NCBI GenBank assembly: GCA_046582595.1
Contig: JAYGEB010000127.1
Location: 1 to 46,836, forward strand
Length of the DNA stretch: 46,836 nt
From: Alphaproteobacteria bacterium
GTDB lineage: Bacteria > Pseudomonadota > Alphaproteobacteria > GCA-2731375
Direction of reading: 5' to 3'
Part shown: one piece after another, positions 2,295 to 43,361 of the stretch
How positions within the stretch are numbered: position 1 is the stretch's first letter
Layout: every line of letters starts with the position of its first letter
Notes under the pieces: model-generated
What the model saw: only the letters and a program-made list of their open reading frames with translations
The model's database searches: none
What the model was told of the DNA's origin: nothing
Made by a program: the position numbers and the translations under genes

Positions 2295-2363
2295 TTATCA
2301 TGCCCGTACTTGACATGGGCGTCCGCGGCGATGTTCGCGCCCGCCAACCGGTGCATGGTCCAA

Positions 2364-2744
2364 TCAGCCGGCGGCGACGGATTCTTCCGTGAAGGTCAAT
2401 TCGATTTTCAGGCCATCGGGCGTATCGAGAAACAACTGCGTCAAGTTGTACTTTGGCACCACCCGTTCGTCATATTCCACGCCGGCGTCTTCGAGGCGTT
2501 GCTTGATCTCGCCATAACCCGTACAGCGGAACGAGACGTGATCGACCACGCCCTTGCCTTCCGGCAATTTGTCGCGTTCGACCAGATGCAGGACCGGCCG
2601 GTCGCCGGCATAGACCCAGGCGCCGGGAAATTTGAAGGGTGGGCGGTCGCCGATACGCAGGCCAAGTACATCCACATAGAACTTGGCGGATGCCGCTGCA
2701 TCCTTGGTCAGGACATTGTAGTGATCGATAAATTCCAGTGGCAT
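2364..2744 (-). CDS. VOC / glyoxalase-bleomycin-resistance-dioxygenase family protein
   Basis: About 126 aa from MPLEFIDHYNVLTKD..FYVDVLGL..., a typical paired beta-alpha-beta-beta-beta VOC N-terminus. The ORF extends to 2813, but ATG 2744 fits the family start. Confidence 0.8.
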   Translation of the reverse strand: MPLEFIDHYNVLTKDAAASAKFYVDVLGLRIGDRPPFKFPGAWVYAGDRPVLHLVERDKLPEGKGVVDHVSFRCTGYGEIKQRLEDAGVEYDERVVPKYNLTQLFLDTPDGLKIELTFTEESVAAG

Positions 2745-2875
2745 GCTTCGGCCTCCCTTGCGCATTTTCCGGCAATAGTATGACCGCAGTCCGCGAAGGG
2801 AGCAATGCATCAAGCCATCGCCATATGCTATATGCGAGACAAGAAACGAGAGTAAACGACTGAGGAAACCAGACC

Positions 2876-4036
2876 ATGAGTTCGCAAAACGACGCTGAAA
2901 CGCCTTTGCTGTTTCAACCCATGACCATTCAATCTGTCACGGCGCGCAACCGCATCGTGGTGCCGCCGCTGTGCCAGTATTCCGCCAAGGACGGCGTCGC
3001 CAACGATTGGCATCTGGTGCATCTGGACGCTTACGCGCGCGGCGGTGCCGGCATTATTTTCGTCGAGGCCACCGGCGTTGAGGCGCGGGGCCGGATTACT
3101 CATGGCTGCCTTGGCATATGGACCGGGGAGCAGGCCAGGGCGATGGCGCCTCTGGTCAACATTATCAAGGCTCATGGCGCCGTCCCCGGCATCCAGATCG
3201 CCCATGCCGGACGCAAGGCGGCGAAGCAGCGGCCCTGGAACGGCCTCGGCGCCCTGACCGAGGCCGATGTTGCTCAGGGCGATGTGCCGTGGGAGGTGGT
3301 GGGGCCATCCGCCCTGCCGGCGGACGAGGGTTGGCTGGTGCCGCGCGAACTGAGCGCGGATGAAATCGGCGATATCGTCAAGGCGTTCGGCCAGGCGGCG
3401 GCGCGCTCCCATGACGCTGGCTTTGAATGTCTGGAAATCCACGGCGCGCACGGTTATTTGCTGCAATCCTTCCTCTCGCCCCTGTCCAACAAACGCACGG
3501 ACGGCCATGGCGGCGATCTAGCGGGGCGCATGCGCCTGGCCTTGGAGGTAACCCGGGAAGTCCGCGCCCACTGGCCCGAAAACAAGCCGCTGTTTTTCCG
3601 GATTTCCTCGGTCGATGGTTCGGAGGACGGTTGGCGGCTTGAAGATTCCGTCGCCCTTGCCAAGGAACTGAAAGCCCTGGGCGTCGATTGCATTGATTGC
3701 TCCTCGGGCGGCAATGCGGCCTCGGCGACGGTGAACCTGATCCCCCGCGGCCTGGGCTTTCAGGTGCCCTATGCCGCCGCCGTGCGGAAACAGGCCGGGG
3801 TTTTGAGCATGGCCGTGGGTTTGATCCTGGACGGCGAACAGGCCGAGGCGATCCTGCGGGCCGGCGACGCCGATCTGATCGCCGTGGGCCGGCAAATCAT
3901 GTACAATCCATTCTGGCCGGTCCAGGCGGCCCAGGATTTGGGCGCCGATCCAGGTTTTGAGATGTGGCCGCCGCAATATGGCTGGTGGCTGGAAAAGCGG
4001 GAACGCACGTTCCGGCGCATGGGTGTTGAGAGGTAG
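2876..4036 (+). CDS. NADH:flavin oxidoreductase, Old Yellow Enzyme family (YqjM/NamA-like)
   Basis: 386 aa. LFQPMTIQSVTARNRIVVPPLCQYSA..DWHLVHL..GGAGIIFVEAT and HGAHGYLLQSFLSP motifs are typical of OYE TIM-barrel flavoenzymes. Confidence 0.9.
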   Translation: MSSQNDAETPLLFQPMTIQSVTARNRIVVPPLCQYSAKDGVANDWHLVHLDAYARGGAGIIFVEATGVEARGRITHGCLGIWTGEQARAMAPLVNIIKAHGAVPGIQIAHAGRKAAKQRPWNGLGALTEADVAQGDVPWEVVGPSALPADEGWLVPRELSADEIGDIVKAFGQAAARSHDAGFECLEIHGAHGYLLQSFLSPLSNKRTDGHGGDLAGRMRLALEVTREVRAHWPENKPLFFRISSVDGSEDGWRLEDSVALAKELKALGVDCIDCSSGGNAASATVNLIPRGLGFQVPYAAAVRKQAGVLSMAVGLILDGEQAEAILRAGDADLIAVGRQIMYNPFWPVQAAQDLGADPGFEMWPPQYGWWLEKRERTFRRMGVER

Positions 4037-4038
4037 GG

Positions 4039-4800
4039 ATGAACGAAGCAATCAGGGTTTTCTGGCAGCCTGGGTGAAGCAGTTGCCTCCGCCTGAAGGA
4101 GCATTTGTCGGCCCGTGCGGTTGACTTCCAATCGATTAATATCGCCGCCGATCCGGACGGTCTGGCGCAATTGCAGGCCTTGGGCGTCCGCACCGTGCCC
4201 GTGGTGGCGAAGGGCAATGACTATGTCATGGGGCTGTCGCTGCGCGACGTGGGCGCATTCCTCGGCCTGGAGGACCAGGGCGCGGGGATGTTGCCGGCGG
4301 AGGAATTGATCCAGCGCCTGGACTGGATTCTTGCCGCCGCGCAGCGCTATTTGCGGCAATTGCCCGACAGCCAGATGCTGGCGCAACTGCCGGGCCGGCC
4401 GCGCAGCTATCGCGATCTGACCTACCATCTGTTTCAGATAACCCGCGCCTTTCTCGGCCTCGCTTCCGGTCAGGAATTGACCTACGAAAAACTGGGTGAA
4501 AGCCCCGGCGATGATCTGCTGACCTTCGCCGACATCGCCGACGACGGCGAGGCCACGCGCCAGGATCTCCTGGCCTGGTGGGAGAGCACCGGCGCGGAGA
4601 TGGATTTCGAGATGGAGGTCGCGACCTATTATGGCCCGCAATCTCTGCACGAGACCCTGGAGCGCACGGCCTGGCATACGGGCCAGCACGCGCGGCAATT
4701 GTTGTTCATCCTCGAAGGCCTGGATATCGCGCCCGATGGCCCCATCGGCGACCGCGAACTTTCCGGCCTGCCCCTGCCGGACCAGGTCTGGGACGGCTGA
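4039..4800 (+). CDS. glutaredoxin-fold / DinB(YfiT)-like fusion protein with in-frame TGA (4075-4077) at the first Cys position of CxxC; candidate selenoprotein, alternatively a pseudogene or a 231-aa product from TTG 4105
   Basis: ATG 4039 with GAGAGG 5 nt upstream lies 2 nt after the OYE stop. Translation is MNEAIRVFWQPG-TGA-SSCLRLKEHLSARAVDFQSINIAADPDGLAQLQALGVRTVPVV.., i.e. beta1-CxxC-alpha1 ... TVP cis-Pro of a glutaredoxin fold. It is in the same frame as the 4105..4800 track ORF. The C-terminal part has DinB-like His residues (YHLF.., WHTGQHARQL). Confidence 0.6.
4079..4108 (+). promoter_or_regulatory. SECIS-like hairpin immediately 3' of the in-frame UGA
   Basis: Upper stem CUCC(4087-4090)/GGAG(4098-4101) with 7-nt loop GCCUGAA. 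Extended by U4084-A4103 and G4085-C4102 with C4086 bulged, plus lower pairs 4079-4082/4105-4108. The loop starts 14 nt after the UGA and begins with G. Confidence 0.4.
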
Positions 4801-4805
4801 TAATT

Positions 4806-5840
4806 TTAGGCGGCGGCGCGGACGGCGCGGGCGATTTCGCTCCATTTGCCGAGGTTGGCGGGGTTTTCGCGGATTGATGTTTCAGCGTGGTACATCACCA
4901 CCCTGGCCGCCATGCCCTGGTAGCGGGCGATCAGCTTGTCGGCCATCTCATCCCAGCGGGCGGGCAGGGCGAAGTGGTTCACCATCTCGTCGTCGATCAG
5001 GGCCACCAAGGCCTCCGTATCGCCGCTTTTCAGATGTACGCGTAGTTTTTCGCGCATGCCGTCATAACCCAGATCATCGAATTGGAAGGCATAGTTGGGC
5101 GTGGCGCCGTAAAAACCTATCTGTGTCTTGGTGGTCAGGGTCGCCGCGGCCTGTTCCTCCGGGCTGTCGCCGGGGATGGCCATGACGGGGACGATCAGAT
5201 CGATTTCCGAAACATCGCGCCCGGTCCGGGCCGCGCCCAGCGCCAGATCGGGCAGCACGCGGTTCTCGATATAGGGCATGGAATGCATGGGATGGACGTG
5301 GATGCCGTCCGCCAACTCGCCCGCCACCCTGGTCATGTAGGGCCCGACGGCGGAAATATCGATCTTCACGTCTTCAAAATCATGACGCTCCGGGGTCCAT
5401 TGTTCGGGCAGCAGGCTCAAATTGTAGTAGGGCCCTTCGTGCTGTAGGGGGCCTTCCCGGCGGAAGGCCAGCAGACAGGCCCGGACGGCTAGCAGATAAT
5501 CCTTCATCTGTGGCGCGGGACGGTCGAAGAGAGAGGCATAGCGCCGGGTGATATGGGCCTTGACCTGGCTGCCCAGGCCCAGGCGAAAGCGGCCTTGGGT
5601 ATTGCGCGCCAGCTCCCAGGCGATCTGCGCCGACATCATGGGACTGCGGGGGAAAGCCACGGCGATGCCGGTGCAGAAATGCAGCGTCGGCGCGGCGGTG
5701 ACGGCCGCGGCGATCATCATCCAGGGCACCTGGCTGCCTTCCGTCATCAACATGCCGGAAAATCCCGCGCCTTCCAGCCGCGTCGCCAAATCCGCCGCAT
5801 CGGGCCAGGTCGATGCCCTGGCCATGAGATCGAATTCCAT
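4806..5840 (-). CDS. luciferase-like monooxygenase (LLM) class flavin/F420-dependent oxidoreductase
   Basis: Starts MEFDLMARAS..; ATG 5840 is preceded by GGGAGGAA. LLM-type TIM-barrel pattern (GFSGMLMTEG.., RFRLGLGSQVKAHITRRY). The track ORF extends to 5954 without support. Confidence 0.85.
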   Translation of the reverse strand: MEFDLMARASTWPDAADLATRLEGAGFSGMLMTEGSQVPWMMIAAAVTAAPTLHFCTGIAVAFPRSPMMSAQIAWELARNTQGRFRLGLGSQVKAHITRRYASLFDRPAPQMKDYLLAVRACLLAFRREGPLQHEGPYYNLSLLPEQWTPERHDFEDVKIDISAVGPYMTRVAGELADGIHVHPMHSMPYIENRVLPDLALGAARTGRDVSEIDLIVPVMAIPGDSPEEQAAATLTTKTQIGFYGATPNYAFQFDDLGYDGMREKLRVHLKSGDTEALVALIDDEMVNHFALPARWDEMADKLIARYQGMAARVVMYHAETSIRENPANLGKWSEIARAVRAAA

Positions 5841-5954
5841 GCTGTTCCTCCCGGTTTCAGGTACGGTTTCCGGCCATCTTAGAATATTTCCAGTGTGACC
5901 GGAATCGCCAGGCCGCCCCGGCGAAGCCAAAGCCAGCGGGCCGGAATTCCGCAA

Positions 5955-7202
5955 TCAGGTAATGCGGACGGGCAGGTGCTTGATACCGCGGATGAAATTG
6001 GAAAAGATCCGCTCCGCCGGGCCCATGATCTCGAAGCGCATGTCCCGCTTCAGAATTTCTTCCCAGAGGATCTGCAGTTGCTGTTCCGCCAGGCGGTCGC
6101 CGACACAGCGGTGAATGCCGGCGCCGAAGGCCAGGTGGCGGCGCGCCTTGGGCCGCCGGATATTGAATTCCGTGGGTGCCTCGATGGCCTCCTCGTCCCA
6201 ATTGCCCGAGACATACCACATCACCACCCGATCCCCCTTGCGGATGGATTTGCCGGCCAATTCCGTATCTTTCAACGCCGTGCGGCGCATATGGATGATG
6301 GCCGATTGGTAGCGGATCATCTCCGGCACCATGGTTTTGATCAGGCCGGGATCGGCGCGCAGGGCGGTGAATTGGTCGGGATTGTCGCACAATGCCAACA
6401 GGCCGCCGCTCATGGTATTGCGGGTGGTATCGTTGCCGCCGACGATCAGCAGAACGGAGTTGGCGATCAGGTCCATGGGACTCATATTCTTGGTGGCGGC
6501 GTTCTGCGCCAGCATGGAGATCAGATCGAAGCCCGGTTCGCCCTTGGCCCGCTCCCGCCACAGGGCGCCCATGTACTGGCCCATTTCCTGCAGCACTTCC
6601 AGGCGTTCCTCATCCGATTTGACCAGGGCGCCGGGCGCGCCGTAATCGGTGGTGGCCACGTCCGACCAGTAGGTCAGCTTGCGCCGGTCTTCGAATGGGA
6701 AATCGAACAGGGTGGCCAGCATCATGGTGGTTAATTCGATGGAGACTTTATCGACCCAGTCGAAGGTTTCCCCTCGGGGCAGGGCATCCAGCACTTCCTC
6801 CGTGCGTTGGCGGATTGTCGCCTCCATGTTGCGCAGGTTATTTGGCGCGACAATGGGGGCGACGGCCTTGCGTTGTCCGGTATGCTCGGGCGGGTCCATG
6901 CTGATGAAGCTCGTCATCCGGTCGCCAAAAGGGTTGTCGCGCAGGGTGATGCCGCCCAGATGGCCGGCGGAGGAATAGGTCGCGTGATCCAACTCCACCC
7001 GCATGATGTCGTCATAACGGGTGACGGACCAATAGGGGCCGTAGGGGCTGTCGGCGCAATAATGTACCGGATCCTCCCGGCGCAGGCGCTGGAAATAGTC
7101 GTAAAAATCGTCGTTTTGGTACAAAGCCGGATCGCTGACGTCGATCTTTTCCAACGGCAAATCGTCGATTTCGATGTTGACTGATGTTTCGATCACGGTC
7201 AT
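5955..7202 (-). CDS. cytochrome P450, CYP153-like
   Basis: 415 aa. Heme-thiolate loop FGAGIHRCVGDRLAE, I-helix GGNDTTRN, and an N-terminal EDPVHYC..GPYWSVTRYDDI pattern reminiscent of CYP153 alkane/terminal hydroxylases. GGAG lies 9 nt upstream of the ATG. Confidence 0.88.
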   Translation of the reverse strand: MTVIETSVNIEIDDLPLEKIDVSDPALYQNDDFYDYFQRLRREDPVHYCADSPYGPYWSVTRYDDIMRVELDHATYSSAGHLGGITLRDNPFGDRMTSFISMDPPEHTGQRKAVAPIVAPNNLRNMEATIRQRTEEVLDALPRGETFDWVDKVSIELTTMMLATLFDFPFEDRRKLTYWSDVATTDYGAPGALVKSDEERLEVLQEMGQYMGALWRERAKGEPGFDLISMLAQNAATKNMSPMDLIANSVLLIVGGNDTTRNTMSGGLLALCDNPDQFTALRADPGLIKTMVPEMIRYQSAIIHMRRTALKDTELAGKSIRKGDRVVMWYVSGNWDEEAIEAPTEFNIRRPKARRHLAFGAGIHRCVGDRLAEQQLQILWEEILKRDMRFEIMGPAERIFSNFIRGIKHLPVRIT

Positions 7203-7297
7203 CGCATTTCACTCCGCTTGGTTGCGCCAACAGCCTAGCGGCAGAGACCATATGGTATCAAGAGGGCCTTTAACGAGGGCCTTCAATTCCGGCGGGT

Positions 7298-7933
7298 TTA
7301 TTCCCGGAACGCCGGCGGATCGGCGAAGAAGAAAAGATCATTGTCCAGTTTTTGGTTGATACGGATATCGGTCAGGGACAGGGCCGTGATGCTGCCCTGG
7401 GAATCCTTGACTTTCCATTGCCGCAACAGCATCGGCGGCTCCGTGAAGGTTATGGCGATCCAGCCTTCGTCGGGCAACTCCCGGTCCACGATACGAACCC
7501 GCAGGACGCCCAGGCCGTGTTCCACTTCCACGACCTCGACTTTTTCGCGCAGATTGACGGGATCGTCCACCAACACGCCCAGTGGCGTTTCGTAAAGGGG
7601 AAAACGGCTGACCTGATCCAGCTCCTTGTCATGCAGCACCAACCAGACGCCATCGGCGACGATGAGCAGGGGCGAGGGGGCGTCATATTCAAAACGCAGG
7701 CGCCCGGGCCGGCGCATGTAGAGTTGACCATGCGATACATTGCCCTCGGAATCCACCTGCAGGAACCGCGCGGACAGGGTCTTCACGCTGTTCATATAGG
7801 TCTCGATCCGGTCCACGGCGGCGGTATCTTCGGAACTCAGGGCGGCAAATGCCGGCGCATAAATCAGGGGCAGCGCGGCCAGGGACATAGCACTTGCCAG
7901 AACGCGGCGTCTGTTCAAACTAGATATCCTCAT
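7298..7933 (-). CDS. lolA: outer-membrane lipoprotein carrier protein LolA
   Basis: 211 aa with a signal peptide (RRRVLASAMSLAALPLIYAPAFA) and LolA-like FLQV..G.LYMRRPGRLRFEY motif. Conserved position directly downstream of ftsK. Confidence 0.85.
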   Translation of the reverse strand: MRISSLNRRRVLASAMSLAALPLIYAPAFAALSSEDTAAVDRIETYMNSVKTLSARFLQVDSEGNVSHGQLYMRRPGRLRFEYDAPSPLLIVADGVWLVLHDKELDQVSRFPLYETPLGVLVDDPVNLREKVEVVEVEHGLGVLRVRIVDRELPDEGWIAITFTEPPMLLRQWKVKDSQGSITALSLTDIRINQKLDNDLFFFADPPAFRE

Positions 7934-7945
7934 CGGGGTTACGGA

Positions 7946-10306
7946 CTAAAACCTCGCGCTTGCCCACATGGTTGGCGCGGCCGACGACGCCTCCGTTTCC
8001 ATGCGGTCGATCAGATCGGCGGCACGGTTATAGCCGATTTTCAATTGCCGTTGCAAAAACGAGGTCGAGGCCTTTTGATTCCGGGCGATGACGTCGACGG
8101 CGGCATCATAGAGGGCATTGCCGCTATCGCCGCCCTGTTGATTTTGGGCCTGGCCGAATTCCATTTCCGCCCCTGGTTCGGCCTCCTCGGTCACGGCGTC
8201 GAGATATTCGGGCCGGCCTTGTCGTTTCAGATGATTGACCACCGCCTCCACTTCCTCGTCGCTGACAAAGGGGCCGTGTACCCGGTTGATGCGGCCGCCG
8301 CCCGCCATGTACAGCATATCGCCCATGCCCAGCAGTTGTTCGGCGCCCTGCTCGCCCAGTATTGTCCGGCTGTCCACCTTGGCGGTGACTTGAAAACTCA
8401 CCCGGGTCGGAAAATTGGCCTTGATGGTGCCGGTGATGACATCGACCGAGGGCCGTTGCGTGGCCATCATGACGTGGATGCCGGCGGCGCGGGCCATTTG
8501 CGCCAGACGTTGCACGGCGGCATCGATTTCCTTGCCGGCGACCATCATCAGGTCGGCCATCTCGTCGACGATGACGACGATATAGGGCATCGCCTCGGTA
8601 TCCAGCACCCGGTCTTCGAATAGGGGTTGGCCGGTCTCGGCGTCATATCCGGTCTGCACCGTGCGCTTCAGTTCCTCTCCGCGCCTCTCGGCTTCGGCCA
8701 GGCGTTGGTTGTAGCCGTCGATGTTGCGCACGCCCAAATTGGCCATGGCGCGGTAGCGGTTTTCCATCTCCCGCACGGTCCATTTCAAGGCCATGATGGC
8801 CTTGCCCGGATCCGTCACCACGGGGGTTAGAAGATGGGGGATGTCGTCGTAGACGCTTAATTCCAGCATCTTCGGATCGATCATGATCATGCGGCAACGT
8901 TCAGGCGGCAGGCAGTACAGCAACGACAGGATCATCGTGTTGATGGCCACGGATTTGCCCGAACCGGTGGTGCCGGCGATCAGCAAATGGGGCATCTTGG
9001 CCAGATCGACCAGCACCGGCGCGCCGGCGATATCCTTGCCCAGGGCGAGGGGCAGGGTCAGTTTGGACTTTTCGTAATCGGCGGTGGAAAGCAGTTCCCG
9101 CAGAAAGACGGTCTCCCGGTCCTGGTTCGGCAATTCGATGCCAATGGCATTGCGTCCCGGCACCACGGCGATACGGACGCTGCGGGCGGACATGGAGCGG
9201 GCGATGTCGTCGGACAGGCTGATCACGCGGGATGTTTTGGTACCCGGCGCCGGTTCCAATTCGTACAACGTGACCACGGGGCCGGGGCGGACCTGCACGA
9301 TGCGGCCATGTACGCCATAGTCGTCCAGCACGGTTTCCAGCATGCGGGCGTTCTGTTCCAGGGCGCCTTCGTTGATGCCGCGGCCTTGTTGGGCCCGCGG
9401 CGGCATGGCCAGAAGGTGCAAGGCGGGCAACTGGTATTCCTCGCCCTCGCTCAGCGCCAGGGCCGGTTGCTGCTCTTGCTGGGCCCGGCGGCTTTTGCGG
9501 ATTTTTTTGCTTGGCTTTCTGACCCGGCCCGGCGTGATCGGTTCGCCGACCTGAATGGGGACGGCCTCGGCCGATGGCGCCAACTCGTCTTCGGTCAAGC
9601 GTGGTTCGCGGCGGAACAGGGGATGGGTGGCGGCTTGCCGGCCCAGACGTTCCGCCGCCGCGGCCGCGAAACGGGCCGCGCCAAAGGTGCGGATCGAACC
9701 GGCGATGCCGGCCCTGACCAGCACCAGCCATTCGGCGAAGCGGATGCCGAGCAGATAGAGCAACAGCAATGCCGTGACCGGGGCGGCGACGGCGAGGACC
9801 AGGGGCGAGCCGGGGGATTGTCCGATCAGGGCCAGCGGCGGGGCGCTGATTTGCAGCAGCCAATCACCGCCATAACCGCCCAATCCGGCGGCCTGGGGCC
9901 ATTGTTCGGGCGCTGCCACGCTGCCCGTCAGGGCGGCCAGCAACAGCAAAACCGGCGGCGCCAGGGCCAGCCGCAAGCCATACCAGGGCAACCCTCGGTG
10001 CGAGGCGATGCGCCAGGCCCAACATGCCATGACGCCAACTACGGCCATGCTGGCCAGGCCAAGGGTCTGTAGCAATAGATCCGCCGCCCAGGCGCCCAGG
10101 CCGCCCAGCCAGTTGCCGGGGCTGCCGGCGCTGGCGACGTTCAGGGCGGCATCTTCCGGGTGGTAGCTGGCCAGGGCCAGGGCCAGGGCCGTGGCGACGG
10201 CAAACAGTAACAGCCCGGCGGTCTCCACCGCGCGGCGCCGTAGGTAGATCACGGCCGCGGGCGGCAACAGGGCCATGCCGCGCGGCGCACCACTATGTTG
10301 TGACAT
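7946..10306 (-). CDS. ftsK: DNA translocase FtsK (3' end apparently frameshifted; conserved frame would end at 7920)
   Basis: 786 aa: N-terminal membrane helices, Pro/Ala-rich linker, motor domain with Walker A GTTGSGKSV, and gamma domain ..QRQLKIGYNRAADLIDRME. The last ~18 codons of the ORF do not match the family, but the alternative frame does (see findings). Confidence 0.9.
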   Translation of the reverse strand: MSQHSGAPRGMALLPPAAVIYLRRRAVETAGLLLFAVATALALALASYHPEDAALNVASAGSPGNWLGGLGAWAADLLLQTLGLASMAVVGVMACWAWRIASHRGLPWYGLRLALAPPVLLLLAALTGSVAAPEQWPQAAGLGGYGGDWLLQISAPPLALIGQSPGSPLVLAVAAPVTALLLLYLLGIRFAEWLVLVRAGIAGSIRTFGAARFAAAAAERLGRQAATHPLFRREPRLTEDELAPSAEAVPIQVGEPITPGRVRKPSKKIRKSRRAQQEQQPALALSEGEEYQLPALHLLAMPPRAQQGRGINEGALEQNARMLETVLDDYGVHGRIVQVRPGPVVTLYELEPAPGTKTSRVISLSDDIARSMSARSVRIAVVPGRNAIGIELPNQDRETVFLRELLSTADYEKSKLTLPLALGKDIAGAPVLVDLAKMPHLLIAGTTGSGKSVAINTMILSLLYCLPPERCRMIMIDPKMLELSVYDDIPHLLTPVVTDPGKAIMALKWTVREMENRYRAMANLGVRNIDGYNQRLAEAERRGEELKRTVQTGYDAETGQPLFEDRVLDTEAMPYIVVIVDEMADLMMVAGKEIDAAVQRLAQMARAAGIHVMMATQRPSVDVITGTIKANFPTRVSFQVTAKVDSRTILGEQGAEQLLGMGDMLYMAGGGRINRVHGPFVSDEEVEAVVNHLKRQGRPEYLDAVTEEAEPGAEMEFGQAQNQQGGDSGNALYDAAVDVIARNQKASTSFLQRQLKIGYNRAADLIDRMETEASSAAPTMWASARF

Positions 10307-28354: not shown

Positions 28355-29179
28355 ATGCGGATCGGCGTTGATTTGGGTGGCACCAAAATCGAGGCGTTGA
28401 TCCTTGCCGACGATGGAACGGAGCTGCGCCGGCAACGGGTGCCTACGCCGCGGGGGGATTACCGCGGCATCGTCACCGCGATCCGGGATCTGCTGGCGGC
28501 GGTGTTGGAGGGGCGGGACGGCGCGGGTATTCCCGCCGGCGTGACCATACCGGGCGCCCTGTCGCCGGCGACCGGGCTGATTAAAAACGCCAATACTACC
28601 TGTCTGATCGGCAAGCCATTCGATCAAGATCTGACCGCCGCCCTTGGCCGGCCCGTGCGTCTGGCCAATGACGCCAATTGTTTCGCCCTGTCGGAGGCCA
28701 GCGACGGCGCCGGGCAGGGCGCCGACAGCGTCTTCGGCGTCATCGTGGGGACCGGTACCGGGGCCGGTATCGTCATTGGCGGCCGCTTGCACGAGGGGCG
28801 CAATTTGATTGCCGGTGAATGGGGGCACGTGCCCTTGCCTTGGCCCGATGACGATGAACGCCCCGGCCCACCCTGTTATTGCGGCAAACGGGGCTGTATC
28901 GAAACGTTTTTGTCCGGCCCCGGACTGAGCCGGGATTTCCAGGCCGCCACCGGGGGGGCGGTGAAAGCCCATGAAATCGCTGAAATGGCGGCAAATGGCG
29001 ATGCCCGCGCCGAGGCCTGCATGGCGCGCTATGAACGGCGCATGGCCAAATCCCTGGCCATGATGATCTCGATCCTTGACCCGGAGGTGATCGTGATGGG
29101 GGGCGGGGTGTCGAATATCAGCCGTTTATACGACAATGTGCCCCGCTTGTGGCGGGAATACGCCTTCTCCGACCAGTAG
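28355..29179 (+). CDS. ROK-family sugar kinase (N-acetylglucosamine/fructo-kinase-like)
   Basis: MRIGVDLGGTKIE.., ANDANCFALSE, GTGTGAGIV, and zinc motif GEWGH..CYCGKRGCIETFLSG. Confidence 0.85.
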   Translation: MRIGVDLGGTKIEALILADDGTELRRQRVPTPRGDYRGIVTAIRDLLAAVLEGRDGAGIPAGVTIPGALSPATGLIKNANTTCLIGKPFDQDLTAALGRPVRLANDANCFALSEASDGAGQGADSVFGVIVGTGTGAGIVIGGRLHEGRNLIAGEWGHVPLPWPDDDERPGPPCYCGKRGCIETFLSGPGLSRDFQAATGGAVKAHEIAEMAANGDARAEACMARYERRMAKSLAMMISILDPEVIVMGGGVSNISRLYDNVPRLWREYAFSDQ

Positions 29180-29268
29180 AACACCAAACTGGTCAAGGCC
29201 CGGAATGGCGATTCATCCGGTGTCCGGGGCGCGGCCTGGTTGTGGCCGCTGCCCGCGGCGGGTTAGCC

Positions 29269-30528
29269 ATGGCCGCCCTGTGCCGCGATTGTCTCGCCAT
29301 CGGCACCGGCGGGGCGGGCACGGGGCGCTGCCAGGGCTGCGGTTCGCCACGGTTGCTGCGCCATCCGGAGCTGTTCCGCCTTGGCATCGCGCATCTTGAT
29401 TGCGACGCCTTTTATGCCAGCGTCGAGAAACGGGACAATCCCTCCCTCGCCGACAAGCCGGTCATCGTTGGCGGCGGCCAGCGCGGCGTGGTCAGCGCGG
29501 CTTGTTACGTGGCCCGCACCTATGGCGTGCGATCGGCCATGCCCATGTTCAAGGCGCGCAAGGCCTGCCCGAACGCGGTGGTGATCAAGCCCGATATGGC
29601 GAAGTATGCCGCCGCCGGGCGTCAGATCAGGACCATCATGAAGGATTACACGCCGCTTGTGGAACCATTGTCCCTGGACGAGGCCTTTTTGGATTTGACC
29701 GGTACCGAGCGCCTGCATGGCCAGGCGCCCGCCGCCACCGCCGCCGCCATCGTGGCGCGTATCGAGACGGAGGTGGGGGTCGGCGCCTCGATCGGTCTGT
29801 CCTATAACAAATCCCTGGCCAAGGTCGCCTCCGACCTGGACAAGCCCAGGGGGTTCGCGGTGATCGGCCGGGCCGAGGCGGTGACATTTCTGGCGGGACA
29901 GCCGGTTTCGATCATTTGGGGCGCGGGCAAGGCCTTGCAACGTCGCCTGGCCAAGGCAGGCATCACGACGGTGGCGCAACTGCAGGCGATCGAGGAAACC
30001 GATCTGATCGCCCGTTATGGCGCCATGGGCCGGCGCATGGCGCAATTCGTGCGCGGCGAGGATCCGCGCCAGATCAGGGCCGGCCGGCCCAACAAAAGCA
30101 TTTCATCCGAGACGACATTTCACCACGATATCGCCGATGGCGAAGAACTGCGGAAGGTCCTGTGGCGGCAGGCCGAGCGGGTGGCGCGCCGGATCAAGGC
30201 GACCGAACTGGCCGGCACCACCGTTGTCCTGAAATTGCGCCGCGCCGATTTCCGCATCCTCACGCGCAGCCGCCGCCTGCCCGATCCGACGCGGCTGGCC
30301 GACACAATTTACCGCCAGGCCGCGGAAATGCTGGCCAGGGAGGTCAATGGCACGGCCTATCGCCTGTTGGGCGTCGGGTTAAGCGGCCTGGTCGATGCCG
30401 CCGGCGCCGACCCCCTTAGCCTGGCCGACCCGGAGGCGGAGCGCCGGGCGGACGCGGAGCGGGCACTCGATCATGTCAGGGAGCGTTTCGGCGTGGACGT
30501 GATCGGCAAGGGCAGGGGCCTGCGTTAA
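29269..30528 (+). CDS. dinB: DNA polymerase IV (Y-family) with N-terminal CxxC..CxxC extension
   Basis: IAHLDCDAFYASVEKRDNP..KPVIVGG, catalytic SLDEAFLDLTG, little-finger region. N-terminus is MAALCRDC..GRCQGCGSPRL. ATG 29269 is preferred over the longer track ORF that overlaps the ROK gene. Confidence 0.88.
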   Translation: MAALCRDCLAIGTGGAGTGRCQGCGSPRLLRHPELFRLGIAHLDCDAFYASVEKRDNPSLADKPVIVGGGQRGVVSAACYVARTYGVRSAMPMFKARKACPNAVVIKPDMAKYAAAGRQIRTIMKDYTPLVEPLSLDEAFLDLTGTERLHGQAPAATAAAIVARIETEVGVGASIGLSYNKSLAKVASDLDKPRGFAVIGRAEAVTFLAGQPVSIIWGAGKALQRRLAKAGITTVAQLQAIEETDLIARYGAMGRRMAQFVRGEDPRQIRAGRPNKSISSETTFHHDIADGEELRKVLWRQAERVARRIKATELAGTTVVLKLRRADFRILTRSRRLPDPTRLADTIYRQAAEMLAREVNGTAYRLLGVGLSGLVDAAGADPLSLADPEAERRADAERALDHVRERFGVDVIGKGRGLR

Positions 30529-39067: not shown

Positions 39068-39859
39068 CTATTCCTGATAATCGATCTGCTCGGCGGGAAT
39101 GTGGCGCCAGGTGTTGTCCTGTTCCTGCTCTTCCAGAAAATGCGTGCCCATGGAGATGCTGCGCGGGGTCAGCAGGAACATCCGCGTGGAGCGCCAGGAA
39201 AAGCCCAGATCGAGAATAACCAGGGCGCCGACCCCGTCCAGGTTCATCGGTACCGCCCGGCCGCCGCGGGCCGCCGCCAACGCGCGGCCCATGGCCTCTC
39301 CGAAGCGGCAATACAGGCCATGGACGCCCTGTTTCCTGGCGATCTCCAGAACCTTGGGCGCGCGCGGATCGGCGCCATGCAGGGGAATGCCGAAGCCCGG
39401 CACCCGCGCTCCCCGCGCCAATGTTTCGCCGACCAGTTTGGTGGCCCTGGCTTGCAGGGCGTCATCGCCGGGCGCCGGGCCATCGGCGATATCGGCGAGG
39501 CTTTCGACCATCATCTTCGCCATCTGTTCGCCCAAGCCGCCCATGCGGTCGCCGAAGGCCTGAATGCCGCCCGCCACCGCCGCCTGTATCGAGGTGCCGT
39601 AAGAGGCGTAACAGCGCGCGATCATGGAGGGCGGCGCGATGCCGTGTTCGACCGAGGCGACCAGCAGCGCATCCAGCACCCGGGTCTCGGCCGCCGAGGG
39701 CTTGCGCCCCTGCAGCATGACGAACATCATCCCGGCCAGACTGACATCATCGATCAGATCGTTCAGATCGTGGCCGCGCACGATGATCTTGTCCTCTCCC
39801 TCGGTGCCGATAACCTGGCTGATCGAGGTCTCCCATTTGCTCATATCCCGCGTTGCCAT
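39068..39859 (-). CDS. citrate-synthase-fold protein, citryl-CoA-lyase-like
   Basis: 263 aa: SKWETSISQV..DKIIVRGHDLNDLI..MMFVMLQGRKPSAAETRVLDALLVASVEHG..PS. Family recalled from similar short citrate-synthase-like proteins. Confidence 0.65.
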   Translation of the reverse strand: MATRDMSKWETSISQVIGTEGEDKIIVRGHDLNDLIDDVSLAGMMFVMLQGRKPSAAETRVLDALLVASVEHGIAPPSMIARCYASYGTSIQAAVAGGIQAFGDRMGGLGEQMAKMMVESLADIADGPAPGDDALQARATKLVGETLARGARVPGFGIPLHGADPRAPKVLEIARKQGVHGLYCRFGEAMGRALAAARGGRAVPMNLDGVGALVILDLGFSWRSTRMFLLTPRSISMGTHFLEEQEQDNTWRHIPAEQIDYQE

Positions 39860-40039
39860 GTTGAACTCCCAATAATCAAAGTAAAATTGCCCGCGTCGCC
39901 GATCTATTGCGATCCTATCCCACGCTCAATGCCGCAAATGTCCGGACGACGCAATTCGCCGATCAAGGCGCGGCGGACCGCTTCGCCTCCGGCTTGGCGG
40001 CGTCGGGTTTGCCGGAGGCCTGATCCGGTCGAAGCCGGC

Positions 40040-40897
40040 TTACGATATTTCGAATTTGTCCAGGTCGTTGCCGATTATCACTTCACCGGCGAAGGCGGCG
40101 GCGTCGAACTCCGGCTTGGCGCCCGGCAGATGATGGGTCAGCACCACCTTGCCGACATTCGCCTGGGCCGCGATATCAATGCAGTCCTGGGGGCTGGCAT
40201 GAAATTCGTGCAGGCGTTCGATGATGCGCCGGCGCGCGGACGGCAGGTCGGGAGAAGGCGCCACGGCGCAGGCGTCGATCACCAATACGTCGATGCCCCG
40301 GCAGAATGCGATCAGCTCGTCGCACTTGGCCGTATCGCCGGTGACCACCAGTGTGTGGCCTTCATAAGTAAATTTGAAGGCCAGAGCGTGCATGGGCGGA
40401 TGATAAACCGGTCCGGCTTCCACCAGGCATCCATCGATCTCCGCCGACCAACCGACGGCGACATCGCGGACGGTGATATCATCGAAGCCGGCGCGGGGAA
40501 AACCCAGATCGATTGCCCATTCCGCCTGCTCCCGGTAATAGCTCTCCACCAATTGATGATGCATGGCCTTGGTGCCGATGGGGCCGGTCACCGTCAATTT
40601 CTGGCGTCCGGCAGTCCAACCGCCCCAAACGAAGGCGGGATAGCCCAGAATATGATCCCAATGCATATGGGTCAGGGCAACGTTGTGAACGCCCTCCAGC
40701 GCCACCCCGGCCGCCAACAGTTGGCCGACCACGCCATCGCCGGCATCCACCAGCATATGACCGCCATTGCCCCCCTTGGCGCCCCATCGCACCAGGGCGG
40801 CGGGATGGTGACGCTCCAGCGTGGGGCGAGGCGAGCCGGTGCCAAGCAAGGTGACCTTGAAGGCGCCCCGGTCCCGCTCTGGTAATTCATCCGACAT
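40040..40897 (-). CDS. MBL-fold metallo-hydrolase (RNase Z-like)
   Basis: LLGTGSPRP.., HMHWDH metal motif, and downstream TGDT/H motifs. Confidence 0.8.
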   Translation of the reverse strand: MSDELPERDRGAFKVTLLGTGSPRPTLERHHPAALVRWGAKGGNGGHMLVDAGDGVVGQLLAAGVALEGVHNVALTHMHWDHILGYPAFVWGGWTAGRQKLTVTGPIGTKAMHHQLVESYYREQAEWAIDLGFPRAGFDDITVRDVAVGWSAEIDGCLVEAGPVYHPPMHALAFKFTYEGHTLVVTGDTAKCDELIAFCRGIDVLVIDACAVAPSPDLPSARRRIIERLHEFHASPQDCIDIAAQANVGKVVLTHHLPGAKPEFDAAAFAGEVIIGNDLDKFEIS

Positions 40898-41026
40898 GGC
40901 GGCAGTTTATGCCGGTGCGCCTTCATTGGCCATGGCGGCGCTTCCCACGGTGGTGGTATGCTTGTTAAGCTGCCTTACAGGGAATTTTGAAGCTTTGGGA
41001 GAGGCCGCGCTGGCGGCCGGAGCAAC

Positions 41027-43039
41027 ATGGCAACATCGGACATGGCAACATCGAATGTGAAACTTTCGGCGGAGACGGCGGAAACCATTTACACCACCAT
41101 GCGCCGCATCCGCGCCTTCGAGGAAAAAACCATGGCCCTGTTCGAACAGGGCGCCGTGAAGGGAACCGCGCACAGCTATATTGGCCAGGAAGCCGTCGCC
41201 GCCGCAGTTTCCGCCAATCTGCGGGATGATGACTACATGGCCTCGAACCACCGCGGCCATGGCCACTGCATCGCCAAGGGCGCCGAACAGAGCCTGATGA
41301 TGGCGGAACTGATGGGCCGCGAGAACGGCTATTGCGGGGGCTTGGGCGGCTCCATGCATATCGCCGATCTCTCCCTGGGTATCCTGGGCGCCAACGGCGT
41401 CGTTGGGGCCACCATGCCGCTGGCGACGGGCGCCGCCCTGGCCATCAAACTGCGCCGGGGCGATCAGGTGGTGGTGGCGTTTTTCGGCGACGGCGCCTCG
41501 AACCAGGGGACCTTTCACGAATGCGCCAATCTGGCCAGTATCTGGAAGCTGCCGATCCTGTTCATTTGCGAGAACAACCAATACGCCCTGACGACATCGT
41601 ACCGGGACACCACCTCGGCGCGGCAGATTTCCGACCGCGCCGTGGGCTACGCCATGCCGGGCCTGACCATCGACGGCAACGATGCCGGCGAAGTCTATGC
41701 GGTGGTCGGCGAGGCCGTGGAACGCGCCCGGCAGGGCGAGGGGCCAAGTCTGATCGAATGCCTGACCTACCGTTGGGGCCAGCATTCCCTGCGCGCCAAC
41801 CTGCGAGACCCCCGGCCGAAGGAGGAATACGACGCCTGGATCGCCCGCGATCCCATCAAGCTGCTGGAAGAGCGCATGCGGGCCGAAAAGACCGTGCCGC
41901 GCAAACGGGTCAAAGAAATTGGCGCCCAGGTGGAGCGGGATTTGGAAAGCGCGGTCGCCTTCGGCAGCGCGGGAGCGGAGCCGACGGTCGAGCGAATGCT
42001 GGCTTCGGTCTATTCCAGCCATGCCCATTATGACGAACCCGGCCCCGTCGGCGATCGTGAAATCACCTATGTGGAAGCCCTGAACGAGGCCATGGGGGCG
42101 GAGATGGCGCGGGACGACAATGTCTTTGTCATGGGCGAGGACGTGGGCCAGACGGGCGGCATTTTTGGCGTGACCAAGGGCCTGTGGGAGCGCTTCGGCA
42201 ACGAGCGGGTTCGCGATACACCCATCACGGAGGCCGGCTTCACCGGCGCCGGGGTGGGCGCGGCCATTGCCGGCATGCGTCCGGTGGTGGAGATCCAGAT
42301 CTTCGATTTTGTCGCCCTGACCATGGACATGCTGGTCAATCAGGCCGCCAAGTTCCGCTATATGCTGGGCGGCAAGCCGACCGTGCCCCTGGTCGTGCGC
42401 GGCCCCCAGGGCGGTGGCATCCGCATGGCGGCGCAGCATAGTCAAAGCCTGGAAGCCTGGTTCACCCATGTGCCGGGCCTGGTGGTGCTGGCGCCGTCCA
42501 CGCCCTATGACGCCAAGGGCTTGTTGACGGCGGCCATCCGGGACGACAATCCGGTGATCTTTCTGGAACACAAAATGCTGTACATGGAAAGCAAGGGCGC
42601 GGTGCCCGAGCAGGACTACGCCATCCCCATCGGCAAGGGCGATATCAAGCGGCCGGGCACCGATGTCACCGTCGTGGCGACCATGGCCATGGTGCCGCGC
42701 GCCCTGGCCGCCGCGCGCGTGCTGGAGCGGGAGGGGATTTCGGTCGAGGTGCTGGATCCCCGCACCTTGCGTCCGCTGGATGAAGATTTGATCTTGTCTT
42801 CGGTGGCCAAGACCAATCGTTTGTTGATTGCCCATGAGGCCTGCAAGCAGGGCGGTTTCGGCGCCGAAGTCGCCGCCCTGGTGGTGGAAAAAGGCTTCGA
42901 CGATCTCGATGCCCCCATCGTCCGGGTTGCCGGCCTGGATGTCCCCATGCCCTATAACGATACCCTGGAACGGGCGGTGATCCCCTCGCAGGAGCGTTTG
43001 ATGGATGCCATTAGGGAATTGGTCGGGAATGGCATCTGA
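41027..43039 (+). CDS. fused 2-oxoacid (pyruvate/acetoin-type) dehydrogenase E1 component, alpha+beta in one polypeptide
   Basis: 670 aa. The N-terminal half is E1-alpha-like ([25 protein letters not shown] motif [10 protein letters not shown]). The C-terminal half is E1-beta-like ([31 protein letters not shown]). Confidence 0.85.
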
Positions 43040-43361
43040 TCCCCGGCCGGCCATCGATCTGGAGCATCTGGGCACGTACACCCAGGGCGACCGGGCCCTG
43101 GAATTGGAACTGCTGAACGTGCTTTTGCCCAATGCCCAGGGCTATGTCGATACCATGGCGGCGCATTCGGGCGAGACCTGGTGGGCGGCGGCGCACGGTC
43201 TGAAGGGCGTCTCCTTGGGCGCCGGCGCCAGGGAACTCGCCACCCTGGCCGAGGCGGCGGAGGCCGCGATGGACGCGGCGGCCAAAATTCGTGGCGGCCA
43301 TGTCACGGCCCTGCGGGCGGCGCTGGAGCGGGTGCGCCGCTTTGTCACGGACCTGGATTGA
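43005..43361 (+). CDS. stand-alone Hpt (histidine phosphotransfer) domain protein
   Basis: ..[25 protein letters not shown]....[25 protein letters not shown] 43005 or 43029; either start overlaps the 3' end of the E1 gene. Confidence 0.6.

Follow-up and report, generated by a model that had tools for sequence, protein, structure and literature searches.

The stretch of DNA analysed here, 46,836 nucleotides in all and referred to as the window, carries two closely spaced forward-strand genes between positions 2876 and 4800. The features that define the second of them are as follows.

2876-4036, forward strand: gene for an OYE/NamA-type flavin oxidoreductase, lying upstream (NCBIfam NamA and OYE matches)
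4028-4033, forward strand: Shine-Dalgarno-like GAGAGG, read from the sequence; ATG 4039-4041 starts 5 nt later
4039-4800, forward strand: full coding sequence of the predicted Grx-like/DinB selenoprotein, 253 codons including Sec13, with stop codon TGA 4798-4800
4075-4077, forward strand: predicted Sec-encoding UGA at residue 13, a column in which 33 orthologues have Cys and 44 have TGA
4105-4107, forward strand: TTG, taken to be a false start, from which ORF and gene callers derive a 231-aa product

The initial annotation had described a single frame from ATG 4039 to 4800 interrupted by TGA 4075-4077, and all of its statements about the sequence hold. That TGA is the sole in-frame stop ahead of TGA 4798-4800, and an upstream in-frame TGA (4027-4029) closes the frame, making ATG 4039 the earliest possible start. 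The GAGAGG 5 nt before the ATG and the OYE stop 2 nt before it, both reported at the outset, are likewise present in the sequence, the stop being TAG 4034-4036. Translation with read-through gives MNEAIRVFWQPG-*-SSCLRLKEHLSARAV...TVPVV..., and the otherwise intact ORF has a high GC3. The program-made ORF list held only the frame from TTG 4105 to 4800; tblastn matches in relatives covered query residues 1-253.

An OYE gene lies directly upstream of the orthologous gene in loci L001 and L003-L008 and 1.2 kb upstream in L010, and in L015 it adjoins the Grx-like gene on the opposite strand. This neighbour is confined to the window clade and L015. It is the probable operon partner of the selenoprotein gene in the window clade. 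A conserved neighbour that might hint at function was sought across 82 loci, and no gene family was found in more than 12 of them.

The codon at the residue-13 column was counted in 77 orthologues, these being the ones from species-representative reference genomes in which the motif was found. It is TGA in 44, TGC in 17, and TGT in 16. The proposal that the TGA stands at the position of the N-terminal Cys of a CxxC motif is thus borne out, the orthologues having either Cys (33 loci) or TGA (44 loci) there. Both flanks of the TGA are conserved in the 44 genomes, and the same TGA within the same flanking peptide was also found in four metagenome contigs of a divergent, low-GC clade; because of this recurrence, a chance origin of the in-frame TGA is rejected. 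Ahead of the TGA, 12 codons keep the peptide they encode while varying at their third positions: the peptide (I/L)(R/K)VFWQPG is retained, and synonymous entropy reaches 1.9 bits at V7, 1.1 bits at P11, and 1.9 bits at G12. Judged by this pattern of variation, the segment upstream of the TGA is translated. The earlier description had named orthologues starting at the TTG-equivalent position as evidence that would count against it; what we found instead was that the 12 upstream codons are kept as protein, so that no orthologue can meaningfully be said to begin at that position.

In the reference-genome scan, TGA forms span Rhodospirillaceae-like marine MAGs, Acetobacteraceae, Burkholderiales, and others. 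About three switches between Sec and Cys suffice to account for their distribution on a neighbour-joining tree, and the clades of Sec forms are deep, sharing less than 50% identity. On these comparisons, the Sec clades of the Grx-like/DinB family are ancient and stable.

Reading through the UGA yields a two-domain protein, whose features were located using the translation with U replaced by C for the Pfam search.

4054-4224, forward strand: glutaredoxin-fold domain (PF00462, residues 6-62, 38.1 bits against a cut-off of 22.9); the fold reaches to about residue 75
4075-4086, forward strand: predicted redox motif U-S-S-C, with U13 and C16, at the N-terminal end of helix 1; from alignments A1 and A3
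4192-4200, forward strand: T52-V53-P54, presumed to form the cis-proline loop; both A1 and A3 show P54 as invariant, and it lies directly before strand 3 (residues 55-58) in the structure model
4318-4701, forward strand: DinB/YfiT-type four-helix bundle (PF12867 DinB_2, residues 94-221, 36.4 bits against a cut-off of 24.8)
4426-4428, forward strand: His130, first of a putative metal-binding His triad, in bundle helix 124-142; invariant in A1 and A3
4675-4689, forward strand: His213-x3-His217 (WHTGQH), the rest of the putative triad, in helix 202-226; invariant or nearly so in A1 and A3

In the Cys forms, the redox motif reads WQPGC[ST]SC, with C13 and C16 invariant in alignments A1 and A3. A structure model built for a Cys-form relative (pLDDT 94.4, pTM 0.90) has a beta-alpha-beta-alpha-beta-beta-alpha fold, with the CxxC at residues 13-16 and helix 1 at residues 14-25. 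A PDB profile search returned glutaredoxin and NrdH matches (best E = 7e-12), and Foldseek placed the glutaredoxin part closest to 3zit (TM 0.91 on target). The complete glutaredoxin-type signature recognised at the outset (CxxC at helix 1, TVP loop) is therefore backed by the PF00462 match, the invariant P54, and the modelled fold. It was also correct that the 231-aa version would lack the active site, as TTG 4105 corresponds to residue 23, near the end of modelled helix 1.

The NCBIfam scan put the window protein under every glutaredoxin, NrdH, and Uxx-star cut-off; at full length, the protein did not attain the cut-off of any NCBIfam model. Because the glutaredoxin-fold domain misses the NrdH cut-offs (39.3 versus 85.75 bits for TIGR02194, and 26.8 versus 131 bits for NF007657), the database name "NrdH-redoxin" is unjustified. 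The Uxx-star glutaredoxin-like selenoproteins (NF041212 and relatives) were rejected as a home for the protein on score (36 bits against a cut-off of 66) and on architecture: those proteins are ~70 aa long and end right after the Uxx, whereas the predicted Sec here is residue 13 of 253. The single-domain selenoprotein glutaredoxin listed in reviews (UxxC, PF00462; PMC9312934, PMC13188914; Kim et al. 2011) is alike in having Sec in place of the N-terminal Cys of CxxC and in its widespread Cys homologues; these proteins are small and come from anaerobes, whereas the window protein is ~3 times longer, has a fused DinB/YfiT bundle, and carries a C[ST]SC-type motif.

The DinB/YfiT-type domain makes up about two thirds of the protein and was overlooked by the initial annotation. 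Foldseek matched the bundle to 6iz2 (TM 0.83 on target, rmsd 3.7 A) and also to 2p1a, 2f22, and 1rxq. Compared with solved DinB/YfiT proteins (6iz2 DR0053, 1rxq YfiT, 2p1a, 2f22, and 2qe9), the window protein shares the four-helix bundle (TM 0.64-0.83 on target) and seemingly also a histidine pattern, one invariant His in helix 2 and HxxxH in helix 4, at an identity of just 14-19%; the solved proteins differ in being stand-alone, ~145-175 aa long, and without a thioredoxin fold or selenium. H130, H213, and H217 may be the equivalents of the YfiT metal ligands (one His in helix 2 and HxxxH in helix 4). The DinB/YfiT superfamily includes metal-dependent bacillithiol and mycothiol S-transferases. 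In its domain order, with a thioredoxin fold at the N-terminus and an all-helical part after it, the protein is analogous to canonical glutathione S-transferases, to which there were weak Foldseek matches, but the helical domain is of the DinB/YfiT type and not the GST C-terminal type; a canonical GST was rejected (TM ~0.3, rmsd 12-15 A, no GST Pfam match).

Two hairpins are predicted in the mRNA downstream of the UGA.

4079-4108, forward strand: proximal hairpin, which may serve as an accessory SECIS or as an alternative one; its apical loop (GCCUGAA, 4091-4097) comes 13 nt after the UGA; -9.3 kcal/mol
4107-4125, forward strand: distal hairpin, the best SECIS candidate; 7-bp stem pairing 4107-4113 with 4119-4125, loop CGUGC at 4114-4118

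The distal hairpin lies 36 nt downstream of the UGA and folds at -8.9 kcal/mol. RNAalifold applied to 45 TGA forms returned it as the consensus structure with three compensatory pairs, the compensatory changes being CG<->GC and UA<->CG. In the alignment, 96.2% of the cells of the distal stem are paired versus 17-48% in slid controls, and at least six of the seven stem positions are paired in 40 of 41 distinct Sec-form sequences; among the Cys forms, the hairpin was found in 0 of 33. A CGUGN loop occurs in 42 of the 45 Sec forms and in no Cys form. Synonymous entropy falls to 0-0.27 bits at codons 24-28, which encode the hairpin, versus a gene mean of 1.15 bits, and the Arg26 codon is CGT, although CGT makes up only 11% of the Arg codons in the window's genes. 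Across the whole window there are only two CGUG-type hairpins, counting both strands, and no second CGUG-loop hairpin following an in-frame TGA was found in the window or in nine close relatives. The suggested check for a SECIS downstream of the UGA has thus turned up a SECIS-like hairpin that is conserved, covarying, and restricted to TGA forms.

The bSECIS criteria, as given in the legend of Fig. 2 of PMC13188914, call for a loop of 3-9 nt, a stem of 4-16 bp, a G in the first two loop positions, a spacing of 16-37 nt, and an MFE of -7.5 kcal/mol or lower; the distal hairpin, itself a prediction, lies within all of them. Set against the bSECISearch model (PMC13188914) and the E. coli fdhF SECIS, it is alike in being a hairpin that follows the UGA within the coding sequence and in having a stem of 7 bp and a 5-nt loop with G at position 2 followed by U. 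It is unlike them in its 36-nt spacing, at the upper edge of the range, and in the extra proximal hairpin between the UGA and the distal element.

The covariation in the distal hairpin stems from a few deep clade splits and not from many independent events. Synonymous resampling of the window sequence by itself gives no significant excess of stability for either hairpin (p about 0.06-0.07), and a 66-nt fold has z = -1.2. It is only the comparative data that are convincing for the hairpin; single-sequence thermodynamics is not. An Rfam scan of the window gave no family at gathering score, and a permissive local scan gave matches at chance level to unrelated families.

Over the proximal segment, Sec forms fold more stably than Cys forms do (-6.0 versus -2.6 kcal/mol), and a proximal hairpin is present in every clade. 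As the pairing register differs between clades, it was rejected as the conserved SECIS and kept as a possible accessory; its 13-nt spacing is also shorter than the 16-37 nt that the bSECIS model allows. The divergent TGA forms L052 and L081-L084 have the proximal hairpin in place of the distal one, with its loop ~23 nt from the UGA in L052 and ~19 nt in L081-L084, and for this reason the proximal hairpin may be the SECIS of the window gene as well. The metagenome scan for low-GC forms, made with a GOS sequence, gave four loci, which sufficed to reveal a different hairpin but were too few for covariation analysis. Taken at face value, the alignments indicate that the SECIS may have shifted between clades of one family, from ~19 nt to 36 nt after the UGA.

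Genes for Sec decoding accompany TGA forms in relatives, in line with what the initial annotation had proposed to look for: selA, selB, and tRNA-Sec lie a few kb off on the same contig in L027, as do a SelB C-terminus and tRNA-Sec in L015. The 46.8-kb window and the flanks fetched for nine close relatives contained none of selA, selB, selD, and tRNA-Sec, and no second selenoprotein gene was found in the window and those nine relatives. TGA is the ordinary stop of 17 of the 39 putative genes in the window.

A family called "Grx-like" was predicted from the Global Ocean Sampling data, with 42 Sec and 255 Cys homologues and a UxxC motif (Zhang & Gladyshev 2008, PMC2398784, Table 2). It was described there solely as pfam00462-like (E > 0.001), and a DinB-type domain is never mentioned. 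BLASTP of the window protein to the "#Grx-like" supplement sequence JCVI_READ_1093016003158 gave 44% identity over 252 aa, its full length (E = 1e-82). The two share the motif WQP(G/H)-U-x-S-C at the same position, a length of ~250 aa, and the C-terminal signature WHxxQHxRQ...LPLPxxxWD. They differ in that most GOS members are low-GC "WQPHUTSC" forms, the fetched contigs of that type having a proximal hairpin in place of the distal CGUG-loop one, whereas the window clade has a high GC content (62%) and its assignment is to Rhodospirillaceae-like MAGs. By sequence comparison, the window gene belongs to the Grx-like family of selenoproteins predicted in 2008 and is not new, a membership that the initial annotation had overlooked. 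GOS_C (TRX_GRX_like, UxxC) was suspected at first but rejected: there was no NF045500 match at E <= 1e-5, the homologous sequences are filed under "#Grx-like", and the GOS_C example in the supplement starts differently. In the literature searched, we found no paper mentioning the DinB/YfiT-type C-terminal domain of the Grx-like family and no experimental report of selenium in any of its members. Among database proteins, the 38 closest go by the name of "NrdH-redoxin" or "DinB family protein"; all are 231-237 aa or shorter fragments, and none of the 38 reaches the N-terminus.

It is almost certain that the in-frame UGA (4075-4077) specifies selenocysteine in the active site of the glutaredoxin-like domain, and with high confidence the best overall explanation of 4039-4800 is one 253-residue Grx-like selenoprotein. 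The databases read the locus differently, with TGA 4075 as a genuine stop or non-coding, TTG 4105 as the start, and a 231-aa DinB protein with an inactive glutaredoxin remnant as the product. Gene callers and NCBI annotate all 38 closest relatives in this way, and TGA is a normal stop in this genome, but this reading is very improbable. In at least 45 genomes, the peptide encoded by the 12 upstream codons is retained despite synonymous variation, and full-length Cys forms have their Cys precisely in the column of the TGA. A protein starting at residue 23 would lose strand 1, the CxxC, and most of helix 1 of a confidently modelled fold, a Sec-form-specific hairpin follows the TGA, and it is ATG 4039 that has a good ribosome-binding site, TTG 4105 lying inside the hairpin region.

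Selenium might also be dispensed with altogether, the UGA being read by a near-cognate or suppressor tRNA (Trp or Cys) or by Cys-tRNA(Sec) to give a CxxC or WxxC protein. Low-level read-through of UGA is common in bacteria, and Sec machinery was not seen in the window itself. Leaky read-through, however, would not select a covarying hairpin confined to TGA forms, with a G-U-containing loop at SECIS spacing; the Sec genes on the L027 and L015 contigs also speak against it, as does the column itself, which is the catalytic Cys position and a typical Sec/Cys pair. We consider it very improbable. A sequencing or assembly error at the TGA has next to no chance of being the explanation, and neither has recent decay of the gene into a pseudogene. 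Nothing beyond one stop codon in one window favours either, and both are effectively refuted by the recurrence of the same TGA in 44 independent species-level genomes and four metagenome contigs, along with the intact remaining ORF, its high GC3, and the depth of the Sec clades.

If the gene is a selenoprotein gene, as the comparative evidence indicates, UGA 4075-4077 would be read as selenocysteine in translation, with SelB and Sec-tRNA(Sec) recruited by a hairpin in the coding mRNA, for which 4107-4125 is the best candidate; the weaker proximal hairpin (4079-4108) may assist in recruiting SelB. The predicted product has a glutaredoxin/NrdH-like N-terminal domain, whose helix 1 opens with the motif U13-S-S-C16, and a C-terminal DinB/YfiT-type bundle. 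The selenol would be the attacking nucleophile of a selenenylsulfide/dithiol redox couple and would probably cooperate with the DinB domain, which putatively binds metal and activates thiols, in detoxification or repair reactions that depend on thiols. In the window clade, this redox role may run alongside the presumably translationally coupled OYE-type reductase. The pTM of the Cys-form model suggests a fixed arrangement of the two domains. On a bolder but unlikely reading, the U13 selenol would be more than a faster nucleophile for a glutaredoxin and would pack against the DinB His triad to form a composite selenium-metal catalytic centre.

The scientific value of the locus is modest, the Grx-like family having been predicted as a selenoprotein in 2008. 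What the present analysis adds is recognition that a glutaredoxin fold and a DinB/YfiT domain are fused in this protein, a SECIS defined comparatively, and a clade-dependent SECIS position; the DinB/YfiT domain, that shift in position, and the systematic truncation to 231 aa in databases are possibly new, if minor. On the practical side, the locus offers a clean and well-supported example of a selenoprotein gene still cut short by annotation pipelines, and a dedicated family model would mend many records because 44 of the 77 orthologues are TGA forms. A composite selenium-metal centre, if it exists, would make the protein a selenoenzyme of a previously undescribed kind; it might, for instance, be a metal-assisted selenol/thiol transferase whose substrates are electrophiles made or consumed by the adjoining OYE reductase. 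If the SECIS does shift between clades, the family would be a natural test set for the evolution of SelB spacing constraints.

The subject gene (window 4039–4800, + strand) can be read from ATG 4039, the first possible start in frame because TGA 4027–4029 closes the frame upstream, to the stop TGA 4798–4800, and one TGA, at 4075–4077, is the sole interruption of this open frame. The preceding OYE-like ORF 2876–4036 ends in TAG 4034–4036, and GAGAGG at 4028–4033 lies 5 nt before ATG 4039. For this gene, the mechanical ORF list gives only TTG 4105–4800, 231 aa. The initial annotation had described the start, the GAGAGG spacing, the lone TGA, and the 231-aa TTG ORF, all of it correctly, and had proposed Sec at the first Cys of a glutaredoxin CxxC motif. 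TGA is the stop of 17 of the 39 putative window genes; it is thus a normal stop in this organism, and the internal TGA needs a special explanation.

In a search of a large protein collection, all 38 of the closest relatives (58–100% identity) were N-terminally truncated calls, mostly of 231–237 aa with a query coverage of 91–93%, a few being shorter fragments; relatives at ≤53% identity are mostly full length and have the glutaredoxin Pfam domain. Alignment placed a Cys at the TGA column of the full-length proteins, whose motif is WQPGC[ST]SC or WQPWCTSC, and showed that the short database proteins start directly past the motif, at MKEHLSAR or MSAR. The codon at this column was read in the DNA of species-representative genomes: of 80 orthologous loci, three gave no match to the motif, and the remaining 77 had TGA (44 loci), TGC (17), or TGT (16). 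The conserved peptide (I/L)(R/K)VFWQPG precedes the TGA in frame in every TGA locus, and codons 5' of the TGA vary synonymously (V7, 1.9 bits; P11, 1.1; G12, 1.9), which together are a signature of translation in this frame. The same column is therefore either a Cys codon or TGA, with the N-terminal frame kept in the TGA loci, in agreement with the initial annotation. Carriers of TGA forms include Rhodospirillaceae-like and other alphaproteobacterial MAGs (the window clade, loci L001–L011), many Acetobacteraceae, as well as Burkholderiales and other Betaproteobacteria; a divergent marine clade of low GC adds four metagenome contigs. Neighbour-joining places the Sec forms in large, deep clades with <50% identity among members, and about three switches between Sec and Cys are enough to explain the tree.

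The internal TGA might be a sequencing error or the mark of a pseudogene, or translation might start at TTG 4105, as in the mechanical ORF; the comparative UGA results rule out all three. Comparison of the orthologous sequences demonstrates that UGA 4075–4077 is decoded and that a hairpin specific to the Sec forms is under selection; that the UGA is decoded as Sec is, on this comparative evidence, highly probable. Two hairpins follow the UGA:

4107–4125, + strand: distal hairpin, the best SECIS candidate; stem 4107–4113 with 4119–4125, loop 4114–4118 (CGUGC), from the RNAalifold consensus
4079–4108, + strand: proximal hairpin; loop 13 nt past the UGA, folding at −9.3 kcal/mol

All 45 TGA forms were aligned over 66 nt counted from the TGA, and on this alignment RNAalifold, unaided, returned a single consensus hairpin (alignment columns 33–39 with 45–51), the distal one. 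Compensatory changes (CG<->GC, UA<->CG, and UA to GC) are seen at three of its pairs, the covariation deriving from a few deep splits. The stem is paired in 96.2% of cells, as against 17–48% when the 3' arm is slid by 1–3 columns, and at least six of its seven positions pair in 40 of 41 distinct Sec-form sequences but in none of the 33 Cys forms; similarly, 42 of 45 Sec forms have a CGUGN loop, which is absent from all Cys forms. Synonymous codon entropy in the Sec forms drops to 0.0–0.27 bits at Ser24, Ala/Val25, Arg26, and Val/Ile28 (gene-wide mean, 1.15), and the Arg26 codon is CGT, which makes up just 11% of Arg codons in the window genes. Counting both strands, the whole window contains just two hairpins that combine a stem of ≥6 bp with a CGUGN loop; the fold statistics of the window sequence alone are not remarkable. 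The bacterial SECIS model has a loop of 3–9 nt on a stem of 4–16 bp, a G among the first two loop nucleotides (as a rule with G or U after it), a UGA-to-loop spacing of 16–37 nt, and an MFE ≤ −7.5 kcal/mol (PMC13188914). With 7 bp, loop CGUGC, a spacing of 36 nt, and −8.9 kcal/mol, the distal hairpin lies within the published model and so agrees with all four bacterial SECIS criteria; a model-conforming element 3' of the UGA, confined to TGA forms, was thus found.

Stability of the proximal segment is higher in Sec than in Cys forms, but the pairing register of the proximal hairpin varies by clade and its spacing is outside the bacterial SECIS model. The divergent TGA forms L052 and L081–L084 (the latter the low-GC marine contigs) lack the distal CGUG-loop hairpin and have a proximal hairpin instead, its loop ~23 nt from the UGA in L052 and ~19 nt in L081–L084. 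The hairpin of L052 (3326–3365) has an 8-bp stem and a GUU loop, and the marine "WQPHUTSC" clade (36–43% GC; L081:1540–1575 and L082–L084) has the loop AGGA. Within this one protein family, the SECIS has therefore changed in both place and sequence.

The 46.8-kb window contains no tRNA genes and no selA, selB, or selD, which says little because the window is a small part of the genome. Across the 44 TGA-form loci, ARAGORN detected five tRNA genes, of which two are for tRNA-Sec. In L027 (116–2967), selA (PF03841, E = 1.6e-127), selB (EF-Tu GTPase domain, SelB beta-barrel, and SelB winged helix), and tRNA-Sec are consecutive, ~6.4 kb upstream of the TGA-form gene; in L015 (2–857), tRNA-Sec is directly preceded by a SelB C-terminus, ~9 kb upstream. 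At least two TGA-form carriers therefore encode core Sec-decoding genes. Because two of only five tRNAs are tRNA-Sec, these two betaproteobacterial MAGs suggest a loose clustering of the selenoprotein gene with the Sec machinery in their lineage. Between tRNA-Sec and the selenoprotein gene, L015 also has a 698-aa ORF (7138–9234, − strand) whose score on the reductive dehalogenase model TIGR02486, 160.0 bits, practically equals the cut-off of 160.35. A 38%-identity tblastn match to the N-terminal GTPase part of SelB in the Cys-form locus L064 (63–527, − strand) could come from SelB or from some other translational GTPase.

The 253-aa product, written with C in place of U, matches Pfam Glutaredoxin (aa 6–62, 38.1 bits; cut-off 22.9) and DinB_2 (aa 94–221, 36.4 bits; cut-off 24.8). 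NCBIfam scores are sub-threshold (NrdH, 39 bits vs. 86; Uxx-star, 36 vs. 66); there is therefore no good ground for calling the protein "NrdH-redoxin", as the databases do, and the family is not covered by any curated model. The closest full-length Cys form, supplied to AlphaFold2 with a 48-sequence alignment, gave a confident model (mean pLDDT 94.4, pTM 0.90), in which residues 5–75 form a classical beta-alpha-beta-alpha-beta-beta-alpha thioredoxin/glutaredoxin fold, followed by four long helices (87–107, 124–142, 163–183, and 202–226). The CxxC motif (residues 13–16) is at the start of helix 1, where the initial annotation had placed it; its Sec-glutaredoxin interpretation is thus supported by the fold as well as by the Cys/TGA column and the Sec-form-specific hairpin. 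Using Foldseek, the helical bundle resembles DinB/YfiT proteins such as 6iz2 (TM 0.83 on target), 2p1a, 2f22, and 1rxq, and the N-terminal domain matches the thioredoxin-like protein 3zit (TM 0.91); canonical GSTs match only loosely (TM ~0.3). In a PDB profile search, only the N-terminal domain drew hits, to glutaredoxins and NrdH-redoxins. Residues that the alignments show to be invariant or nearly so include C13 (or U13), C16, P54, H130, and a WHxxQHxRQ motif containing H213 and H217; the three histidines are consistent with the three-His metal site of DinB/YfiT proteins, to which they may be equivalent. The window also encodes an ORF with impB/mucB/samB domains (IMS, IMS_C; 29149–30528, + strand), presumably of the DNA polymerase IV family, whose E. 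coli gene is named dinB; it is unrelated to the DinB_2/YfiT domain, and the coincidental name could confuse annotation.

An OYE/NamA-type flavin reductase gene is directly upstream on the same strand in the window clade (stop-to-start 2 nt in the window; same gene order in L001 and L003–L008), 1.2 kb upstream in L010, and adjoining on the opposite strand in the betaproteobacterial L015. The close relative L002 retains only a 69-aa remnant (9722–9928) of the OYE gene, and the partnership is therefore not obligatory even inside the window clade. No neighbour is conserved family-wide above 12 of 82 loci; recurrent ones (acyl-CoA dehydrogenase, OYE, glyoxalase-family protein, OsmC-like protein, MFS transporter, and SDR) have at most a loose redox/detoxification flavour. 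The longest ORF in window 2310–2813 (2310–2783, + strand) has no Pfam or NCBIfam match; the real gene is probably the minus-strand ORF 2364–2813, a conserved upstream neighbour in the window clade, because the homologous stretch of L002 (9295–9675) encodes a glyoxalase/bleomycin-resistance family protein on the opposite strand. Two oxidoreductase genes (4806–5954 and 5955–7202, both − strand) are convergent with the selenoprotein gene: respectively an LLM-class enzyme scoring above the cut-off for the F420-dependent family TIGR03617 (294.6 bits, cut-off 278), also directly downstream in L001 and L006–L008, and a cytochrome P450. An F420-type enzyme is somewhat unusual in an alphaproteobacterium. 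Further away, nothing in Pfam matches the large ORFs 39101–40885 (+ strand, 594 aa) and 40907–43132 (− strand, 741 aa) at E ≤ 1e-5. Their GC3 is 0.66–0.67, lower than that of most genes around them, and they are possibly acquired or specific to the lineage.

SelB with Sec-tRNA(Sec) would bind hairpin 4107–4125 and bring Sec to UGA 4075. U13 and C16 would be redox partners in a selenenylsulfide/selenol-thiol couple, Sec being the attacking nucleophile, the DinB/YfiT domain would bind metal plus a thiol or electrophilic substrate, and in the window clade the protein would work alongside the presumably co-transcribed OYE reductase; as a whole, this functional sketch is tentative.

Among the entries of review tables are a single-domain glutaredoxin selenoprotein (UxxC) and several Grx-like ones (PMC9312934, PMC13188914). 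In the supplement of Zhang & Gladyshev 2008 (PMC2398784), a block headed "#Grx-like" comprises ~250-aa sequences, for example ...VRVFWQPGUTSCLRAKEFL...LERSTWHSGQHVRQ...LPLPEKVWD, and the window protein matches one of these over its full length (44% identity, E = 1e-82). In Table 2 of that paper, Grx-like is a UxxC family represented by 42 Sec sequences and 255 Cys homologues and is counted among "previously described" families (PMC2398784); the "Glutaredoxin" selenoprotein family of the 2005 Sargasso Sea paper (10 sequences) may be the same or another family. No link between a DinB domain and a selenoprotein was found in the literature searched. By sequence, the window gene is a new member of the already predicted Grx-like selenoprotein family and is therefore not a discovery; its residual value is that a widespread mis-annotation is corrected, the fusion of a glutaredoxin fold with DinB/YfiT is described, and the SECIS is defined, together with its shift between clades.
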